The notes under the pieces are model-generated. The model did no database searches. It saw only the letters and a program-made list of their open reading frames with translations, and was not told the DNA's origin. From Acidobacteriota bacterium (GTDB lineage Bacteria > Acidobacteriota > Vicinamibacteria > Marinacidobacterales > Marinacidobacteraceae), in NCBI GenBank assembly GCA_022822745.1, contig JAJEAO010000005.1:17831-81830 (forward strand): a DNA stretch of 64,000 nucleotides, in the 5' to 3' direction. Position numbers and translations under genes: made by a program. Position 1 is the first letter of the stretch; every line of letters begins with the position of its first letter. Below, one piece after another: positions 6,633 to 32,518 of the stretch.

Positions 6633-9600
6633 GTGTGTGGCGCGCCGGGATGGGCGTGTTGGCGGGAGGGTGAAGCCGGGTTGGAGGCGGGGCGCATACC
6701 ATCGCGCCATGTCGTGGCGGCGCGGGGGGAAGCGCAGGGCGCGGATCCGCGAGAGGGCGGCTCCGTGACGCAACTCGGTGTGCGTCCGGACTCGGGCCGC
6801 AGCCGGTCCGAGCCGGCGTCATCCACCCCCGGCGTTCTGGTCCAGGAGCTGGATCGCATCGCGCGGGAAACCGGGAGAGCCCGCAAGATCCTGATCGGTC
6901 GCACGCGTGGCGAGGGGAAGGAGCTGCTGCGGCAAGTGGCGCTGCGTGGCCGCTCGTGGACGGGGTTCGAGGTCGAGACGTTACGACCCTTCGCTTCCCG
7001 AATCGCTGCGCCCCGCCTCGCCCGGGATGGCCTCGCGGTGATGGATTCGGTCGACGAGCACGCTCTCGTCGAGCGCGCCCTGGACTGCGTGATCCCGCGC
7101 TTCCCCGACTTCTCGGAACTCGCGGAGAAGACCGGGTTCCGGGAGGCGGTGCGCCACTCGGTGGCGGCGCTGCGAAACGCCGGCGTCCGGCCGGACGCCG
7201 TGGAGCCCCGTGGCGGAGATTCGCAGGGGTTCGACAAGACCTCGCTGGTGACGCAGGTTCTGGCGGCGTACGAGTCTCTGATGCGGGAGGCGAACCGAAC
7301 GGACACGGCGGGGATCCTCCGGAGGGCGACCCGGAGTCTCGACGGCGGCGAGCGCCCTCGCTGGCTCGCGGATGCCCGGATCTTCCTGCTCCCCGGGCTT
7401 CCCGACCGGGGACTCGAGAGAGGCTTTCTGGCTGCACTGCAGGGCCTCGGGGCGGAAGTTCTCCGGACCGACGCTGTGGAGGGCCTGAATGTCCCGGATG
7501 GAGTCCTCTGGGAGGCGGCGCCGCCGGAATCCTGGGGCAGTTGGCTCCACGCCGTGGATCGGTGCGAGGCGGGCGCTCGGTCCGACCGCATCGAGCTGTT
7601 CCGCGCGGCTTCGGTTTCCGACGAGTTGCGAGGTGTGCTGCGAAGGGCGCTGGACATGGGAGCCCGCTGGGATCAGGTCGAGATCGTCGCCGCCGACCCC
7701 TGGTCGTACGGGTCGGCGCTCCACGCGGTGGCTGAGGCGAAGGAGATCCCGGTCAACTTCGCGGTCGGCCTGCCGGTCGAGCGAACCCGTCCCGGAAGGG
7801 TCGTCTCGACCTGGTTCCGCTGGATCGAGAGCGGTTTCCAGGAGTCGCTCTTCCGGGCGCTCGTCGAGGCCGGCGATGTGACGCCGCCGGGGAAGACGCG
7901 ATCCAGGGGGTTGTATGGCCCGTCTCTTGCCCGGGCGCTGCGGCGGCTCCGGATCGGGTGGGGCAGGGAACGAACGCTCGAGAGGATCGAGCAGGGGCTC
8001 GAGGGCGTCAGCGCGCTTCGGCCCAAGCCCACCGAGAGCGAGGCGAAGTTCGAGGAACGCAGGAAGTGGGAGCGCAGGAAGTGGGAGCGCAGGAAGTTGA
8101 TGGCGCTGCGGGACCTTCTCCGTCCCGTGCTCGAGGCGACGCCGGCGACCGACGGTCAGGCCTCGCCGTCCGAGGTTGCGAGCGGCGTGAAGAGTCTGCT
8201 GAAGCGAGCGACAAGCGGCACCGCCACCGACGGCATGGCGAGGCAGCGGCTCCTGGGTCAACTCGATCGCATCGAGGCCACGTTGACGCGTCCCACCGAC
8301 TTCGCTTCGGCCTGCGCGATCGTCCAGGCCCGCCTCCAGATCCGCATCCCGGCGCCGGGAACGAAGGGGCTGGCGCGGTGGAGCACTGCGCCCGGCGCCA
8401 TCTACCTGACGGATCGGCGGCATGGAGGCGCCACCGGCCGCCGCTTCACCTTCATCGTCGGTCTCCATGCGCGGTCCGTGGTCGGCTCGCTCCACGAAGA
8501 TCCGCTGCTCGGCGACGAGGAACGGCGTCGCATCGGCGAGGGTGAACTGCCGCTCGCGTCTGACCGGGCGGATGAGGCCCGCTTCGACTTCGCCCAGCTC
8601 TTCGCTCGATTGCGGGGCACGGTCGTCGTCAGCTACCCGTGCTGGGATCCCGTCCAGAGCAGGAAACTGGCGCCGGCTCCCGAAATGCTTCAGGCGCTTC
8701 GGCTTCGCGAGTGCGATGCGGCCCTCGGCTTCGAGAAGCTGGAGAAGGCAATCGGCGTGGCCGAGTCGCGTGCGCCGCGTCAAGAAATCACCGCCGACCT
8801 CGACCGCAGCGATGCGTGGCTACGCGCTCTCACGAGGGAGCCAGGCCGATTCCGCGACGGACTGGCTGCCGTTTCGCGATCGTTTCCCCAGCTTGGCGCG
8901 GGCCTCGCCGTCGCTCGGGCCCTCGAGCGCGACGAGCCGTCGGTGCATACCGGTTTTCTCGGTGTCCATTCTCCGCCTCTCCCCTACCAGGATGTCTCGG
9001 GCTGGAAGTTCTCGGCGAGCGGTCTCGAGACCCTGGGTACCTGTCCCCGACGCTTTCTCTTCAAGTACATCATCAAGGCGTATCCGCCCGACGACCCCGA
9101 GTTCGATCCCGGCCGGTGGCTGAATGCGCTAAAGAAGGGAGGACTGCTTCATCGGGTGTTCGAGAAGACACTCAAAAAGGCTCGGTGCCGCGGGATCGAA
9201 CCTCTCGACTCCCAGTTTGAGATTCTTGCTCAAAAGGTGCTGGCGCTCGAGGGTCAGAAGGAGCTCCGGAACACACCTTCCCCGAGCCAGGCGGTGCACC
9301 GCTGGCAGATGGAGGAACTCCAGGAGGACGCTCGCTCCTTCGTCGAGATGATTCGCAAGCGGGAGCCGCAGTGGCTGAAGCTCGAATGGCCGTTCGGGCG
9401 GGACACGGATCTGAAGATCCAGGCCGGGCGTCGGTCCGTTCTAGTGCGCGGTTCCGTGGACCGGGTTGACGACCATGGCAGTCACCTGCTCGTGGTGGAC
9501 TACAAGACCGGCAGCGATTACAAGTACCAAGGTGAAACCAAGACCCACGACGGTGGACGGCGCCTGCAGCACTTCCTGTACGCCCGCGTGGTGGCCGACG

Positions 9601-22887: not shown

Positions 22888-25023
22888 ATGCGCCTTCCGG
22901 GTTCCGTTCCTCTTCTCCTCCCGCTCTTTCTCGCGCTCGCTCCGCCGACCGTCCTGGCGGGGCAGGGGAGGGCGCCCGGCCCGGAGCGGGTCATGGTGCT
23001 CGGGTTCGACGGCGCCGACCCGGACACGATCGCGGCCATGATCGCCGACGGAGAGCTGCCTCACCTCGCCGCCCTCGGCGCGCAGGGGACGCTGGCGCCG
23101 CTCGAGACGACGAGGCCCTCGGAGTCCCCGGTGGCCTGGGCCACCTTCGCCACCGGCATGAACCCGGGGCGCACCCGGATCTTCGACTTCCTCGAGCGGG
23201 GAGAGGGGGGGTACGCGCCGCGGATCGCGCTCGTGCGGCAGGGGACGCTGCGTCTTCCGGGAATGCTCACGCGCGTCGCGCTGCTCGGGCTCCTTGCAGC
23301 GCTCGCCGCGGTGGTCGGGGGTCGGCTCGCGGGGAACCGCTTCGGTGCGGCTCGGGTGCGGGCCGTCGCCGGCCTCCTCGTCCTCGGGATCCTCGGTCCG
23401 GTCGCGATCTTCCTGCCCGACGCGGCGCCGCAGGCGGTCCGGGCCCGGCAGGGGCCGGCGTTCTGGGCGGTCGCCGGCGCTGCCGGCGTGCCTGCCGTCG
23501 CGCTCATGGCGCCCATGGAGTTTCCGGTGACCGAATCGCCCGGCGCCCGGATCCTCGCGGGGTTCGGGACTCCCGACGTCCGCAAGTCGTTCGGCCTCTG
23601 GTCCGTGTACACGACCGACCTGCTCGATGAGGAGTCCACCGAGACCGGAGGGACGCGTTTTCCGATCCGGTTCGAGGATGGAGTCGCCCGCAGCATCGTC
23701 CGCGGCCCGCGGGATTTCACGGAGTCCCCCGACGAGCGGGAGCAGTCCGAGGTCGAGATCCCCGTCGTCTTTCGCCGGAGCGGGGAAACGCTCTCGATCG
23801 AGGTGAGCGGGACCACGGTCGGGCTGGCGGTCGGGGAGTGGTCCGACTTCGTTCCGGTCTCCTTCGCCCTGAACCCGATGGTCCGGGTGTACGGGCTGAC
23901 CCGCTTCCGGTTGCTCGCGCTGGAACCGAACACGACGGTTTACATGGAGCCGATCAACTTCGACCCCGAGCGACTGCCGCCGATCGTGGATCTGTCGTGG
24001 CCTCCGGGGTTCGCCGGAGACCTCGCGGAGCGCTCCGGACGCTACGAGACGATCGGCTGGAAGATCGTGACGAATCCACTTCGCGACGGAGATCTCGACT
24101 TCGAGGCCTTCCTCGAGGACACCCGTTTCGCCCGGGAGACGAACGAGCGGCTGCTCCTGGATGCGATCCGGGAGGAGGACTGGAAGCTGCTGGTCTCGGT
24201 GTTCCTGTTCCCCGACCGGGTCCAGCACATGATGTTCCGGTTCGCCGACGAGGAGCATCCGAACCACGACCACGAGCTCGCCGAGCTCTACGGCGGCGAG
24301 ATCGCAGAGGCCTACCGGGACATGGACCGCATCGTGGGCGAAGCCGTCGCCGCGGCGCCGCCGGGAACCCGCTTCCTCGTCGTCTCGGACCACGGCTTCC
24401 ACTCGTTTCGCAAGCAGTTCAACGTGAACACCTGGCTGGCGCAGAACGGCTATCTCCGGCCGCCCGCCGAGTCGGAGGAGAGGAGACTCGAGGACCTGTT
24501 CGACCCGGATGCGCTGTTCTTCCCCGGAGTCGAATGGAGCCGGAGCGAGGCGTTCGCGCTGGGGTTGTCGGGGATCTACTTCAACCAGCGGGGGCGCGAG
24601 CCGCAGGGCGTCGTCGAGCCGGGGGCGGGCCGGGATGATCTTGCCGAGCGGCTGATCCGGGACCTCCTCGCCTTCCGTGATCCCGAGACCGGAGAGCCGG
24701 TGGTGCGCGTCGTCCACCGGCGGGAGGACATCTACGAAGGAGAGTTCGTCGAGGAGGCGCCCGATCTGATCCTCGGGCTGGAGCCGGGTTACCGCATCGG
24801 CTGGCAGAGCACGCTTGGGGGTTTCCCGGAGGCGGCGATCACGCCGAACCTGGACGACTGGAGCGGCGACCACTGTTCCATGGAGGACACCGCGGGCGTG
24901 CTGGTGTCGGACCTGCCTCTCGCCGCCCCCGCCGCGCTCCGGGACATCGCCCCCACGGTGCTGGATCTGCTCGGCGTCCCGCCGCCGCCGGACACCGACG
25001 GCCGGTCCCTGTTCGGTCCATGA
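22888..25023 (+). CDS. alkaline-phosphatase-superfamily type I phosphodiesterase / nucleotide pyrophosphatase-like protein
   Basis: ATG at 22888 (the track ORF opens at 22816). LGFDGADPD and SESPVAWATFATGMNPG metal-site blocks; N-terminal signal peptide. Confidence 0.7.
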   Translation: MRLPGSVPLLLPLFLALAPPTVLAGQGRAPGPERVMVLGFDGADPDTIAAMIADGELPHLAALGAQGTLAPLETTRPSESPVAWATFATGMNPGRTRIFDFLERGEGGYAPRIALVRQGTLRLPGMLTRVALLGLLAALAAVVGGRLAGNRFGAARVRAVAGLLVLGILGPVAIFLPDAAPQAVRARQGPAFWAVAGAAGVPAVALMAPMEFPVTESPGARILAGFGTPDVRKSFGLWSVYTTDLLDEESTETGGTRFPIRFEDGVARSIVRGPRDFTESPDEREQSEVEIPVVFRRSGETLSIEVSGTTVGLAVGEWSDFVPVSFALNPMVRVYGLTRFRLLALEPNTTVYMEPINFDPERLPPIVDLSWPPGFAGDLAERSGRYETIGWKIVTNPLRDGDLDFEAFLEDTRFARETNERLLLDAIREEDWKLLVSVFLFPDRVQHMMFRFADEEHPNHDHELAELYGGEIAEAYRDMDRIVGEAVAAAPPGTRFLVVSDHGFHSFRKQFNVNTWLAQNGYLRPPAESEERRLEDLFDPDALFFPGVEWSRSEAFALGLSGIYFNQRGREPQGVVEPGAGRDDLAERLIRDLLAFRDPETGEPVVRVVHRREDIYEGEFVEEAPDLILGLEPGYRIGWQSTLGGFPEAAITPNLDDWSGDHCSMEDTAGVLVSDLPLAAPAALRDIAPTVLDLLGVPPPPDTDGRSLFGP

Positions 25024-25070
25024 AGCCGGCGCCTTCGGGGCGCTACACTGACAGGGAGGAACCACAACTC

Positions 25071-25379
25071 ATGGAAGTTGCGAAGCAGGCGACCGGCGCG
25101 GCGGCCGCTGACCCACTCGCCCGGGAGAGGGCCTTCCTCCAGGCGAACGTGGAGGATCTTGCGGCCCGATATCCGGGCCGCTATCTCCTGATCCAGGGTG
25201 AGCGAGTGTACGGAGCGTTCGAGACATTCAACGCCGGAGTGGACGCGGGACTCGATCGTTTTCCCACGAGCGATTTTCTCGTGCGCTCTGTGCTGGAGCC
25301 CGACGATCCGCCACCCTTGAACATCCCGGCTCTGTCGCTCGGGTTTCCTCTCGTTGCCGATCCTCAACAGTCGCGTTGA
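25071..25379 (+). CDS. small hypothetical protein
   Basis: ATG with AGGGAGGA 12 nt upstream; 102 aa. 3-prime end overlaps the next gene by ~26 nt. Confidence 0.45.
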   Translation: MEVAKQATGAAAADPLARERAFLQANVEDLAARYPGRYLLIQGERVYGAFETFNAGVDAGLDRFPTSDFLVRSVLEPDDPPPLNIPALSLGFPLVADPQQSR

Positions 25380-25812
25380 GGCAGAAGGCGGCGGGCGCGC
25401 CGCCGCCCTGACTCACGTCGGTCCCCGTTGCCAGATTGCGCTGCGGCCCGCGGAAGCGCAGGTTCGATCCCTGACGAAGCGCGGCCTGCCCGTACCGGCT
25501 CCGGTGACCGGATGGGCCATGATCGACACGGGGGCCGCCTTCACCTGCGTTGACGTGGAGGCGGCGGAGTGGGCGGGTCTTCGCACGGTCGATACCGGCC
25601 GGATCACGTCGGCAACGCATGAGGGTGAGCCGACCCCCATCTATGCCTGTCGTCTCGAATTCGTCGGCTGGGACATCAGCCTGACGAAACACCGCGCCTA
25701 CGGGGCGAGACTGGCTCCCCAGGATCTGGTCGCTCTGATCGGGCGAGATGTGCTCTCCCAGTGCGTCCTGATTTATAACGGCGCGGACGGCGCGTTCTCC
25801 CTGGCGCTCTGA
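25354..25812 (+). CDS. retropepsin-like (clan AA) aspartic protease
   Basis: AMIDTGAAFTCVD (D-T-G-A catalytic loop) and C-terminal LIGRDVL...LIYNG..GAFSL region typical of retropepsin dimers. Confidence 0.65.
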   Translation: MPILNSRVEAEGGGRAAALTHVGPRCQIALRPAEAQVRSLTKRGLPVPAPVTGWAMIDTGAAFTCVDVEAAEWAGLRTVDTGRITSATHEGEPTPIYACRLEFVGWDISLTKHRAYGARLAPQDLVALIGRDVLSQCVLIYNGADGAFSLAL

Positions 25813-25938: not shown

Positions 25939-27117
25939 TCAGGGGCGCGGCGTCCCGCCGGCGGCGATTCGTCGCACGTACGAGATGAAGCTCGGGATCC
26001 CGGGCTCCCAGCCGGCCGCGCTTCGCCACAGGACGCCGAGGTCGGAGAGGGTCTCCAGGAGCCGCGACGGGTCGCCGGGGGGTGTGGTTTCGGCAGCGAG
26101 TTCGCGCATGAGCGGTCCGACTTCCAGCGCCGACAGAGGGCGGCCGCCGCGACGGTGGAATCGCGCGGCCAGTGACGGCAGAACGGACTCGACCGCTCGG
26201 GAGCGAGCCTCGTCGAGCCGCTCCTCGTAGAGCTCCCCGATTTCCGGCGCGACGGCCGCGATGCCCGCTTCCGCGTGTTCGGGCGCGATCCGTCCCGTTC
26301 CCGATCGGGCGGCGGTGTCCCACGCGGCGCGGCCCAGGAGCTGAACGAAGAACGGGTAGTCCCGGGATTCGGCCGCCAGTCGCCCGGCGGCGCGGTCTTC
26401 GAGGGGGCGCCCGCTGTTCCGGGCCGGTTCGACGAGAGCGCGAAGGGTCTCCGGCCTGGCGAGACGACCGATGCCCACGCGCTGGAGCATCCGCTCGGTG
26501 AACGCGCCGCAGGCGCGGATTCGGCGGGGCGCATCGGGAGTGCCGGCGGCAATCAGGAGGAACGGCAGCTCGCGGGCCGTCGCGCGCTGGACGGCGCGGA
26601 AGAAGGCGCCGCCCGCCTCCGGATGGATGACGTGCGCCTCGTCCAGCAGGAGAACCAGAGGAGAGCTATCGAGTTCGATCCAGCGCAGCAGCATCTCGGG
26701 GATGTCCGGGGTCGGCTCGGAAAGCGCCGTGGAGATGCCGAAGCCTGCGACCTGTGCTCCTGTGATGCGCTCCTCCGCCAACCCGGCGCGTTCGCGCAGG
26801 CATCGAACGAGTTCTCCCTTCGACTCGATGCATTCCGCGGGAAGTTCCTCGGCTCTCATGCCCCGCCGACGGGCCTGATGGGCGATGTGGACCAGCAGAG
26901 TCGTCTTTCCGTTCCCCCGGGGACCGAACAGGAGGAGGCCGCGGGGCGGGCGGCGTCCGGTGGCGAGGAGATCGAGGGCCTCCCGGGCCAGCGCCAGTTC
27001 CCGGTCGCGACCGGCGAGGACCGGCGGGAGCGCTCCGGCGCCGGGCTGGAACGGATTCGCCGAGGGCGCCAGGGAGTCTGGTCGCGGGATCCCGCGACCG
27101 CGGGGGGGACCGGGCAG
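25939..27117 (-). CDS. AAA+ ATPase (archaeal-ATPase / DUF234-like)
   Basis: Walker A LLLFGPRGNGKTTLL, Walker B LVLLLDEAH. There is no ATG/GTG/TTG in frame between the upstream permease stop (27120) and Walker A. Start is uncertain; the only candidate is CTG at 27117. Confidence 0.6.
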   Translation of the reverse strand: MPGPPRGRGIPRPDSLAPSANPFQPGAGALPPVLAGRDRELALAREALDLLATGRRPPRGLLLFGPRGNGKTTLLVHIAHQARRRGMRAEELPAECIESKGELVRCLRERAGLAEERITGAQVAGFGISTALSEPTPDIPEMLLRWIELDSSPLVLLLDEAHVIHPEAGGAFFRAVQRATARELPFLLIAAGTPDAPRRIRACGAFTERMLQRVGIGRLARPETLRALVEPARNSGRPLEDRAAGRLAAESRDYPFFVQLLGRAAWDTAARSGTGRIAPEHAEAGIAAVAPEIGELYEERLDEARSRAVESVLPSLAARFHRRGGRPLSALEVGPLMRELAAETTPPGDPSRLLETLSDLGVLWRSAAGWEPGIPSFISYVRRIAAGGTPRP

Positions 27118-30276: not shown

Positions 30277-30561
30277 ATGGCCACTTTCGATGTGCGTGAA
30301 GCCCGGACGCACCTCTCCCGTCTCCTGCTGGACGCCGAGAGGGGAAGGGAAGTCGTGATCGCCCGGAACGGCAGACCCATCGCCCGGCTCGTTCCGCTCC
30401 GGCCCCGGGGGAGGCGGCAGTTCGGCGCCCTCCGCGGTCAGGTCCGGGTTCCGGACCGCTTCTTCGATCCGCTTCCCGAGAGCGAGCTGGAGCGGTGGGA
30501 GGAAGAGGTCGGCGCGGCTCCTGCCGGACACTCCCGCGTGGCTGGAGTGGCTGACGAGTAG
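30277..30561 (+). CDS. Phd/YefM-type antitoxin (VapB-like), apparently orphan
   Basis: MATFDVREARTHLSRLL...VVIARNGRPIARLVPL; C-terminus FFDPLPESELERWEE. No PIN-domain ORF is adjacent. Confidence 0.65.
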   Translation: MATFDVREARTHLSRLLLDAERGREVVIARNGRPIARLVPLRPRGRRQFGALRGQVRVPDRFFDPLPESELERWEEEVGAAPAGHSRVAGVADE

Positions 30562-30651: not shown

Positions 30652-31563
30652 TCAGTCGCTGAAGCGGAGGGCCGGGAGCGGCGAACCGGTGAGGCGCTCG
30701 TAGATCGAGAGGTACCGCTCGGTCGTGCCGCGGACCACCCGGTCGGGCAGGTGCGGCGGGGGCGGCTCCTTGTTCCAGTCGAGCGTGTCGAGGTAGTCCC
30801 GCACGTACTGCTTGTCGAAGCTGGCCTGAAGTCGCCCGGGGGCGTAGTCGTCGGCGGGCCAGAACCGCGAGGAATCCGGCGTGAGCACCTCGTCGATGAG
30901 ATGGAGCTCGCCGTCCTCGTCGAGGCCGAACTCGAACTTCGTGTCCGCGATGATGATGCCCCGCTCGGCGGCCCATTCCACCCCGCTCTCGTAGATGTCC
31001 CGCGAGACCCGGTGGAGGCGCTCGGTCAGCTCGCGACCGAGTTCGTTCGCCATGTACTCCTCGCTGACGTTGATGTCGTGCCCTTCGGTGGCCTTGGTGG
31101 CGGGCGTGAACAGCGACTCGGGGAACCGTTCGGCGAGCTGCATCCCCTTCGGGAGCTCGATGCCGCACACGCCGCCCTCCCGCTGGTACTCCCTCCATCC
31201 GGAGCCGTAGAGGAACCCCCGCATCACGCACTCGAACGGCACCGGGCTGAGCTTCCGGACCAGCATGGAGCGACCCTCGAGCACCGCCTTCCCCGGCGCC
31301 AGCGCATCGGGGTATTCCCCGACGTCGTCCGAGATCAGGTGGTTGCTGACGATTCCGGCGGTCTTGCGCAGCCAGAACCCGCTGATGCTGTTCAGCACCC
31401 GGCCCTTGTCCGGGATGCCCTCGGGGAGCACGACATCGAAGGCCGAGACCCGGTCGGTCGTGACGAGCAGGAGGTTGCCTTCCACCTCGTAGATGTCGCG
31501 GACCTTGCCGCGATTGAGGAGGGTGGCGCCCTCGAGGTCGGTGTGGCGAATGGCTTGGGACAT
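30652..31563 (-). CDS. purC: phosphoribosylaminoimidazole-succinocarboxamide synthase
   Basis: Starts MSQAIRHTDLEG...GKVRDIYEV; SAICAR synthetase blocks throughout. The track ORF extends upstream to 31647 as low-complexity read-through. Confidence 0.9.
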   Translation of the reverse strand: MSQAIRHTDLEGATLLNRGKVRDIYEVEGNLLLVTTDRVSAFDVVLPEGIPDKGRVLNSISGFWLRKTAGIVSNHLISDDVGEYPDALAPGKAVLEGRSMLVRKLSPVPFECVMRGFLYGSGWREYQREGGVCGIELPKGMQLAERFPESLFTPATKATEGHDINVSEEYMANELGRELTERLHRVSRDIYESGVEWAAERGIIIADTKFEFGLDEDGELHLIDEVLTPDSSRFWPADDYAPGRLQASFDKQYVRDYLDTLDWNKEPPPPHLPDRVVRGTTERYLSIYERLTGSPLPALRFSD

Positions 31564-31573
31564 CAACCGAATT

Positions 31574-32518
31574 CTACGGTCTGCGGCGGCCGGCGCCGCG
31601 CCGCGCCTCCCCGTCCTCGCCGCTGCGGCGATCCAGACGGGCTTCATGGCCCGACCCGGGCCGGAGCAGCACGCGGGCGGCGGGGCCCTCGCCGAATTCG
31701 GCGAACCGGACCGCAGCGCGCTCTTCCCAGTCGTCTCCGTTCCCCGTCTCCTCGTCCTCGTCGGGCTCGCCCGCGGCCGAGACCAGGGCGGCGGCCTCGG
31801 CGGGAAGCGTCAGGCGCACCGAGCCGTCCGCCGATCGGAGTTCCCAGACGCCCCGGGGAGCGGGCGCCGCGGCGGACCGAGCCGTCACCGTGACCCGGCC
31901 GTCGCCCGAGACCGCCCGAACCTGCTGGAGCCGACCGGCGAGGCCGATTCTTCCGTCCGCCGTCTCCGCGACGAAGCGACCCTCGAGATCCTTCCCGTCG
32001 ATCCGTCCGTCTCCGGTTCGGAGTTGCGCCGGGGAGGCCCCGGCGCGAAGCGACTCGGCTTCGATCGGCCCGCTCGCCGTCACCGCCTCCACCGGGCCGG
32101 TCAGCCCGGACAGCTCGATGCGTCCATCCCCGGTCCACGCCTTGATTGCCGTTCCCGGGGCGGTGCGGATCGTGAGCCGCAGCCCGACGGACTCCCCGAG
32201 CCGGAAGGCGCCGCCGAGCAGGTTCCGGCCGCGGATCCGGAGCGTTTCCGCATCCTCCCCGTCGGTCTGGACGACGATCGCCGGAAGGGCGGAGGCTGCC
32301 GCCTCGCGCGAAAGCGCCCTCGACCACCGCTCGACTTCGATCTCCACTTCGGGGAGCGCGTGCTCCCGGATCTCGAGATCCCCCTGATCGAGTCGGATCT
32401 CGATCGAGGGAGCGGCGGGAAGCCGCCGGATCTCCACCGATGTCTCGACGACTGGTTCGACGCACCCCGCGGTCAGCGAGAGCGCCACGGCGGGCGTCGT
32501 GAGCCAGCGACAGCTCAT
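31574..32518 (-). CDS. DUF4097-like beta-strand-repeat lipoprotein
   Basis: Lipobox LSLTAGC; repeated short G-D-G-R/S-I/V beta-strand units. ATGA overlap with the upstream stop. Confidence 0.6.
   Translation of the reverse strand: MSCRWLTTPAVALSLTAGCVEPVVETSVEIRRLPAAPSIEIRLDQGDLEIREHALPEVEIEVERWSRALSREAAASALPAIVVQTDGEDAETLRIRGRNLLGGAFRLGESVGLRLTIRTAPGTAIKAWTGDGRIELSGLTGPVEAVTASGPIEAESLRAGASPAQLRTGDGRIDGKDLEGRFVAETADGRIGLAGRLQQVRAVSGDGRVTVTARSAAAPAPRGVWELRSADGSVRLTLPAEAAALVSAAGEPDEDEETGNGDDWEERAAVRFAEFGEGPAARVLLRPGSGHEARLDRRSGEDGEARRGAGRRRP

Follow-up and report, generated by a model that had tools for sequence, protein, structure and literature searches.

A mobile, overlapping gene pair for a putative DUF5678-type protein and a retropepsin-like aspartic protease, possibly a toxin-antitoxin-like module

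Free-standing retropepsins are abundant in prokaryotes, and characterised clan-AA enzymes from bacteria are few, namely APRc (PMC4140852) and the Pseudomonas enzymes RimB and RloA (PMC12239564). RimB of Pseudomonas works with a genetically linked partner, the ATP-grasp ligase RimK (PMC12239564). In Sulfolobales, small retropepsin-domain proteins of about 100 aa (Saci_1895) are cas-linked and associated with type III CRISPR-Cas systems (PMC3973734). Here we analysed a 64-kb stretch of DNA with 70% GC from an Acidobacteriota bacterium (contig JAJEAO010000005.1; the whole stretch is referred to as the window), in which the gene for a retropepsin-like protease follows and overlaps the gene for a small partner protein. 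We read this pair, tentatively, as a toxin-antitoxin (TA)-like module.

The two open reading frames (ORFs) are co-directional on the + strand and sit in different reading frames, the small-protein gene (ORF A) preceding the protease gene (ORF B). An earlier annotation made from the letters of the window (the sequence-only reading) gave ORF coordinates, an IDTGAA motif, a 26-nt overlap and a strong Shine-Dalgarno (SD) sequence, all of which were confirmed in the sequence. The features of the pair are as follows.

25053..25059, + strand: SD-like AGGGAGG of the small gene, seen in the sequence, 11 nt ahead of the ATG at 25071
25071..25379, + strand: ORF A, the small partner gene, ATG start, 102 aa, probably a divergent DUF5678-family member (ORF reading, profile and AlphaFold2 (AF2) model)
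25323..25343, + strand: codons of the IPALSLG tail motif (residues 85-91) of the small protein, upstream of the overlap (conservation count)
25354..25379, + strand: overlap of both genes, 26 nt, holding the TTG start of the protease (ORF coordinates, relatives)
25354..25812, + strand: ORF B, the retropepsin-like aspartic protease gene, TTG start, 152 aa (Pfam, AF2, Foldseek)
25525..25536, + strand: codons of the catalytic D58-T59-G60-A61 (IDTGAA being residues 57-62; alignment)
25741..25749, + strand: codons of G130-R131-D132, the second retropepsin signature (alignment)

Scanning a single genome from each species gave 300 protease relatives, and the genomic counts reported here cover the best 80 loci. 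The TTG start of ORF B is backed by the homologues, of which 24 of 26 begin with MPILN or MPILx at the same column, and 69 of the 75 intact genomic loci carry an ATG, GTG or TTG exactly at this position. Public gene callers on this contig gave a protease of 97 aa starting at M56 (MIDTGA), thereby missing 55 N-terminal residues and the TTG, and such a truncation would remove the strands ahead of the catalytic Asp. Among the Logan members, the 152-aa form was present in one only. Because the homologues share the MPIL start and the public call is truncated, the 152-aa call is the better one. No sigma-70 promoter was found upstream of the pair in a scan that is uninformative at 70% GC.

ORF B codes for a clan-AA retropepsin-like protease, on the basis of its motifs, the Pfam hits of the protein and its family, and its predicted fold, in agreement with the sequence-only reading. 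On its own, the window protease gave sub-threshold matches to gag-asp_proteas (PF13975; E 1.2e-4, 23.1 bits, gathering cut-off 28.2), to Asp_protease_2 (PF13650; E 5e-4, 21.1 bits, cut-off 24.3) and to RVP, whereas all 27 family members matched both gag-asp_proteas and Asp_protease_2 at E <=1e-3 (best 1e-9). The search with these two models that had been proposed from the sequence gave clear hits for the family. Two further models named for that search were rejected, since the protease scored far below the cut-offs of TIGR02281 (clan_AA_DTGA; 12.5 bits against 57.95) and TIGR03698 (clan_AA_DTGF; 12.3 bits against 57.35).

The single-chain AF2 model of the protease, built on the family alignment, had a predicted local distance difference test score (pLDDT) of 88.8 and a predicted template-modelling score (pTM) of 0.81. 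Its best Foldseek matches in the PDB were the human T-cell leukaemia virus 1 (HTLV-1), Rous sarcoma virus (RSV) and Rickettsia APRc proteases and the RVP domain of Ddi1 (E to 1.9e-4, probability 1.0). Nearly all of the top 50 were aspartic proteases, mostly retroviral, APRc or Ddi1 RVP, with several two-lobed pepsin-family enzymes among them. By sequence, the protease family profile found the human immunodeficiency virus 1 (HIV-1) protease (E 1e-6), the HTLV-1 protease (E 1e-3), Ddi1 and APRc (E 0.04), and a profile search sized the family at 7,825 clusters of 50% identity at E <=1e-3 and 2,882 at E <=1e-10. The hydrophobic-hydrophobic-DTGA motif, which is M-I-D58-T-G-A61 in the window, was invariant in 27 of 27 aligned proteins, and DTGA was present in all 88 related ORF segments covering the catalytic site. 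I-G130-R-D132 was also invariant in the alignment, and GRD was found in 86 related ORFs. Because both signatures are invariant, ORF B probably codes for an intact enzyme and not for a pseudo-protease. Three features set the family apart: some 33 residues are added on the N-terminal side of DTG, the N-terminus itself is strongly conserved as MPIL(N/H), and a hairpin at the flap position, a putative flap loop, carries a conserved SA(T/S)H motif. A C-terminal β-strand in the AF2 model resembles those of the retroviral dimer interface. No signal peptide was recognised by eye.

The small partner had been described from the sequence as having no recognisable family, and this description does not hold for its relatives. 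The window protein had no match in Pfam or NCBIfam, and none to PF18929 even at E up to 10, whereas a profile of its relatives found 544 proteins, and 42 of 57 aligned relatives matched DUF5678 (PF18929; best E 9.6e-7). One relative carries the NCBI name DUF5678 domain-containing protein, and some have precomputed PF18929 hits. The small protein may be assigned, at the family level, as a divergent DUF5678 member. The window copy is atypical, with a 13-aa N-terminal extension (MEVAKQATGAAAA) and a Pro at residue 65, where Gly is found in 76 of 81 relatives. In addition, the usual stop codon of the small gene reads CAA in the window, which adds 4 residues and extends the overlap from 14 to 26 nt. 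Elsewhere, a second, partial small-protein gene was seen in locus L025 (4044-4325), about 1 kb downstream of a complete pair, with no second protease detectable.

The AF2 model of the small protein (pLDDT 72) contained a helix (residues 17-33), a hairpin (38-50), a second helix (53-63) and a strand (70-73), followed by a tail (74-102; pLDDT <50) that is predicted to be disordered in isolation. The most conserved segment of the protein lies in this tail, namely the motif I85-P-A-L-x-L-G91, with P86 in 81 of 81 relatives, L88 in 80, G91 in 79 and A87 in 75. Dual coding would not account for this conservation, since the motif lies upstream of the overlap; its Gly codon contributes to the SD-like GGAG of the protease gene. 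Both the tail motif and the catalytic residues of the protease are under purifying selection, and a motif that is conserved yet predicted to be disordered is the signature of a partner-binding linear motif. No DNA-binding domain was found in the small protein with Pfam, nor any match to ribbon-helix-helix, AbrB, helix-turn-helix or Phd folds, operator sites not having been searched. Foldseek matches to ubiquitin had a probability of <=0.1 and a template-modelling (TM) score of about 0.2. The core of the small protein showed no similarity to known effectors or toxins.

A small-protein homologue was located directly upstream of the protease gene, on the same strand, in 79 of the 80 genomic loci, the sole exception being at a contig end. 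The same arrangement was observed in 8 of 8 viral contigs from IMG/VR and in all 8 further places looked up, including a thaumarchaeon. The pair is thus essentially obligate, far beyond chance, and as in type II TA systems its genes are adjacent, co-directional, overlapping and found together. This near-obligate co-occurrence, together with the conserved overlap, strongly supports the suggestion in the sequence-only reading that the small protein is closely tied to the protease as its substrate, inhibitor or chaperone. Of the two outcomes that would have spoken against that reading, an absence of protease-family HMM hits and an absence of gene-pair conservation across genomes, neither was obtained. 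Distant protease variants of 142-144 aa also keep a homologous partner (E ~1e-22), with a different tail; only two such variants have a short gap instead of the overlap. In two loci of this subfamily (L097, 2743-3429; L098, 2755-3435), the protease is without about 19 N-terminal residues, the partner's tail is without IPALxLG, and the genes do not overlap. The tail and the N-terminal region of the protease may therefore co-vary.

The overlap measured 13-53 nt in 75 loci, with 14, 13, 26, 47 or 32 nt in most of them. The protease starts with GTG in 35 loci, ATG in 18 and TTG in 16, a start codon being absent at the conserved position in the remaining 6, and the SD-like GGAG lies inside codons of the partner. 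The protease gene is translationally coupled to the small gene through the overlap.

The pair is a self-contained, horizontally mobile two-gene module, and its distribution is patchy and its context variable, as in type II TA systems. The 150 nearest flanking ORFs fell into 121 different Pfam families. Transposases adjoin the pair in several individual loci, and genes for TacA/GNAT, MazE-PIN, and BrnT/HicA or BrnA lie near it in others; in locus L012, the pair is inserted inside a cox operon. In a viral contig (L110, 584-6089; IMG/VR UViG_3300036819_000104), the pair lies between the genes for a head-maturation protease (phrog_53) and the major head protein (phrog_212), with the portal gene (phrog_21) upstream and all of these phage head genes on the same strand as the pair. 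There the pair would be either cargo (moron) genes or, less likely, genes with a role in virion maturation. The bacterial hosts belong to more than 10 phyla and include Acidobacteriota, Chloroflexota, Alpha- and Gammaproteobacteria, Nitrospirota, Binatia, Ignavibacteria/Bacteroidota, Verrucomicrobiota, Planctomycetota, Armatimonadota and a firmicute metagenome-assembled genome (MAG), in addition to the thaumarchaeon. In the window, the GC content at third codon positions was 0.69 and 0.77 for the pair, compared with 0.85-0.94 for the surrounding genes.

Taken together, these features suggest a mobile TA-like module in which the protease is the effector and the tail of the small protein is its inhibitor, a reading to which we give slightly less than even weight. 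The indications are the strong start of the small upstream protein, the weak start of the coupled downstream enzyme and their obligate pairing, together with the disordered, invariant tail, the mobility and the preferential decay of the enzyme gene. It is also conceivable, if somewhat doubtful, that the pair represents the first recognised class of TA or abortive-infection type with a retropepsin-like effector, restrained by a DUF5678 partner via IPALxLG.

In the proposed mechanism, the product of the upstream gene would be a small cytoplasmic protein of the DUF5678 type, probably made in excess given its ATG start and strong SD sequence. It would consist of a folded α/β core and a flexible tail at the C-terminus that bears the near-invariant IPALxLG. 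The downstream gene, coupled by the overlap of 13-53 nt and usually starting with a weak GTG or TTG, would yield a retropepsin-like protease with intact catalytic motifs, which by analogy with all retropepsins would have to homodimerise to build its two-Asp active site. The small protein would bind the protease by its tail and hold it inactive, the tail either occupying the substrate cleft like a pseudosubstrate or mimicking a β-strand and blocking the dimer-interface sheet formed by the N- and C-termini. Loss of the small protein, or its displacement by competition, would free the protease to cut proteins of the cell (or of a phage). The analysis itself shows the identity and predicted fold of the two parts, their obligate pairing and coupling, the mobility of the pair, and the purifying selection on the catalytic residues and the tail motif; that the two proteins bind, that the protease is inhibited and toxic, and what triggers it are steps that we infer. 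The toxin-binding tails of type II antitoxins are conserved yet disordered, and expressing a retroviral protease is toxic to bacteria. The tail, [I]-P-A-L-[S/T]-L-G, resembles the N-terminus M-P-I-L-N and the C-terminus F-S-L-A-L of the protease, a likeness that we regard only as a lead.

The protease gene was disrupted beside an intact small gene in 7 of 79 loci, and the reverse was seen in none. In-frame stops interrupt the protease in three of them (a TGA for Arg in L032, two stops in L066 and a TAA in L078), a frameshift that may be a sequencing or assembly error in L036, and truncation in L085, L087 and L090, the small gene being full-length in each case. If disruptions were proportional to gene length, the probability of all seven falling in the protease would be about 0.05. 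The loci were found via the protease, so that the sampling is biased against seeing decay of the protease alone.

Several points weigh against the TA-like reading. The asymmetry of decay concerns seven loci only, some of them in MAGs with possible assembly errors. The small protein is without a recognisable DNA-binding or autoregulatory domain. The immediate neighbours of the pair are mostly housekeeping genes, with about 5% related to defence, restriction-modification or PIN proteins (GmrSD, DUF1156, EcoRI-methylase, PIN). Searches by tblastn with three family members found no relatives on 72,556 PLSDB plasmids or in 50,697 isolate phage genomes, which is unusual for a classical TA system, and the PADLOC models and PHROGs gave 0 hits for both proteins. 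Moreover, binding, inhibition and toxicity are all inferred, and a tail so extremely conserved would be expected just as much of a true substrate.

The main rival, which we consider unlikely, is a dedicated enzyme-substrate pair. The small DUF5678 protein would be a precursor cut at or near IPAL/xLG, in a minimal prokaryotic analogue of Gag-protease maturation, and cleavage would release or activate it as the real effector. The tail motif is hydrophobic and predicted to be extended or disordered, like the substrates of retropepsins, and its invariance equals that of the active site; the residues past the motif vary in length and sequence, as expected of a discarded peptide. An excess of small protein over enzyme would also suit a substrate. 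However, the seven loci with an intact small gene and a broken protease, with no reverse case, are hard to square with a need for processing, and the resemblance of the small core to no known effector or toxin is a further difficulty for this rival.

Less probable still is a non-toxic role in regulated proteolysis, with the small protein as an adaptor, chaperone or assembly factor (ClpS-like) in an accessory stress response. It would then deliver substrates to the protease or stabilise it.

A Gag-Pro-like fusion, made by programmed ribosomal frameshifting in the overlap and processing itself as a polyprotein, is very improbable. In its favour, a retropepsin is encoded downstream, and its ORF overlaps the first in another frame. 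However, both relative frames occur (about 60 loci in one and about 15 in the other), the overlap varies between 13 and 53 nt, and the genes of distant relatives do not overlap. A fusion is also disfavoured by the start codon that 69 of 75 loci keep where MPIL begins, preceded by the SD-like GGAG. A fixed frameshift polyprotein was rejected because of both frame relations and the conserved start codons. Within the overlap, what is selected is the N-terminus of the protease: it stays MPIL in both frames, while the last residues of the partner shift with the frame (ANP versus CQS).

The sequence-only reading also placed an AAA+ ATPase gene convergently just downstream, and the position of this gene stands.

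25939 to ~27100, - strand: convergent AAA_16/STAND-like ATPase (PF13191, E 7e-10)

A three-component system including this ATPase is the least credible explanation and was rejected, for although the ATPase ORF ends at 25939, 126 nt past the protease stop, and gave weak PADLOC matches (mad8 and IetA, E 4e-4 to 1e-2), no ATPase or other third gene was conserved beside the pair in the 80 genomic, 8 viral and other loci examined. An all-against-all comparison of flanking ORFs likewise found no conserved third gene, and the AAA_16 ATPase is therefore incidental.

Other observations concern the surroundings of the pair. A public call of 306 aa for the ATPase would begin after the P-loop (GPRGNGKTT, at about residue 200 of the 530-aa ORF) and is probably too short. 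A 22-nt imperfect direct repeat (86% identity; 24969-24990 and 25945-25966) flanks the cassette, with copies 976 nt apart that fall in the 3' ends of the phosphodiesterase and ATPase genes; it may be due to chance in GC-rich DNA or may be an insertion remnant. About 4.5 kb from the pair, 30277-30561 (+) codes for a 94-aa Phd/YefM-type antitoxin (PF02604, E 4.9e-9, above the gathering score). No toxin gene was evident downstream of it, where the next ORF is a convergent one of 331 aa (30652-31647), and it may be an orphan antitoxin or part of a decayed TA locus.

The components of the pair come from known superfamilies, and its conserved two-gene architecture and TA-like properties appear to be undescribed in the literature searched. 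Searches on the function of DUF5678/PF18929 or on the gene pair found no study, one unrelated paper mentioning DUF5678, and searches combining retropepsin with antitoxin, or aspartic protease with toxin-antitoxin, found no study of the pair. The obligate, coupled DUF5678 partner is a concrete and testable handle on the function of prokaryotic retropepsins. If the TA-like reading were true, aspartic proteolysis would join the effectors of TA and conflict systems, and DUF5678 would gain a role, as would thousands of retropepsins that stand alone in prokaryotes or are carried by phages. The small protein would then be a natural protein inhibitor or dimerisation blocker for the fold targeted by HIV protease drugs. 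Were the partner a substrate, the pair would mirror Gag-protease maturation in a minimal prokaryotic form.

Compared with known systems, the window protease shares with the retroviral proteases (MEROPS A2; those of HIV-1, HTLV-1 and RSV) the predicted fold (Foldseek E ~2e-4, TM score on the target ~0.6), the DTGA and GRD signatures, a Pro after the Met at the N-terminus and a C-terminal interface-like β-strand. It differs from them in being free-standing, with its own initiation and not excised from a polyprotein, in the roughly 33 extra residues before DTG and the SA(T/S)H in the flap loop, and in having a DUF5678 partner and not Gag. The RVP domain of Ddi1 was among the top matches by fold and by sequence; however, Ddi1 is a eukaryotic multidomain protein (UBL-RVP-UBA), and the small partner in the window is not demonstrably ubiquitin-like.

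APRc (PDB 5c9f), RimB and RloA are, like the window protease, prokaryotic clan-AA single-lobe aspartic proteases, and APRc was among the top structural matches, although its sequence similarity is marginal (E 0.04). Unlike the membrane-associated APRc and the secreted RloA, the window protease has no signal peptide by eye. The partner of RimB is RimK, in contrast to the small DUF5678 protein here, and none of these three enzymes belongs to a mobile overlapping two-gene cassette. The Saci_1895-type proteins, likened here by description only, also stand alone as small prokaryotic proteins with a retropepsin domain and are linked to conflict systems, but they are cas-linked and no DUF5678 partner has been described for them. 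As for DUF5678 (PF18929) itself, the family relatives match it, whereas the window protein has no Pfam hit and carries the 13-aa extension, Pro65 and the 4-aa read-through.

We know of no TA toxin that is an aspartic protease. The pair differs from type II TA systems such as Phd/Doc and CcdAB in its aspartic-protease effector, in having no detected DNA-binding domain and no PADLOC match, and in its absence from PLSDB plasmids. It shares with them a small, upstream, antitoxin-like gene that overlaps the effector gene, a conserved tail predicted to be disordered at the C-terminus of the small protein, obligate pairing, a patchy mobile distribution, and preferential decay of the effector gene.
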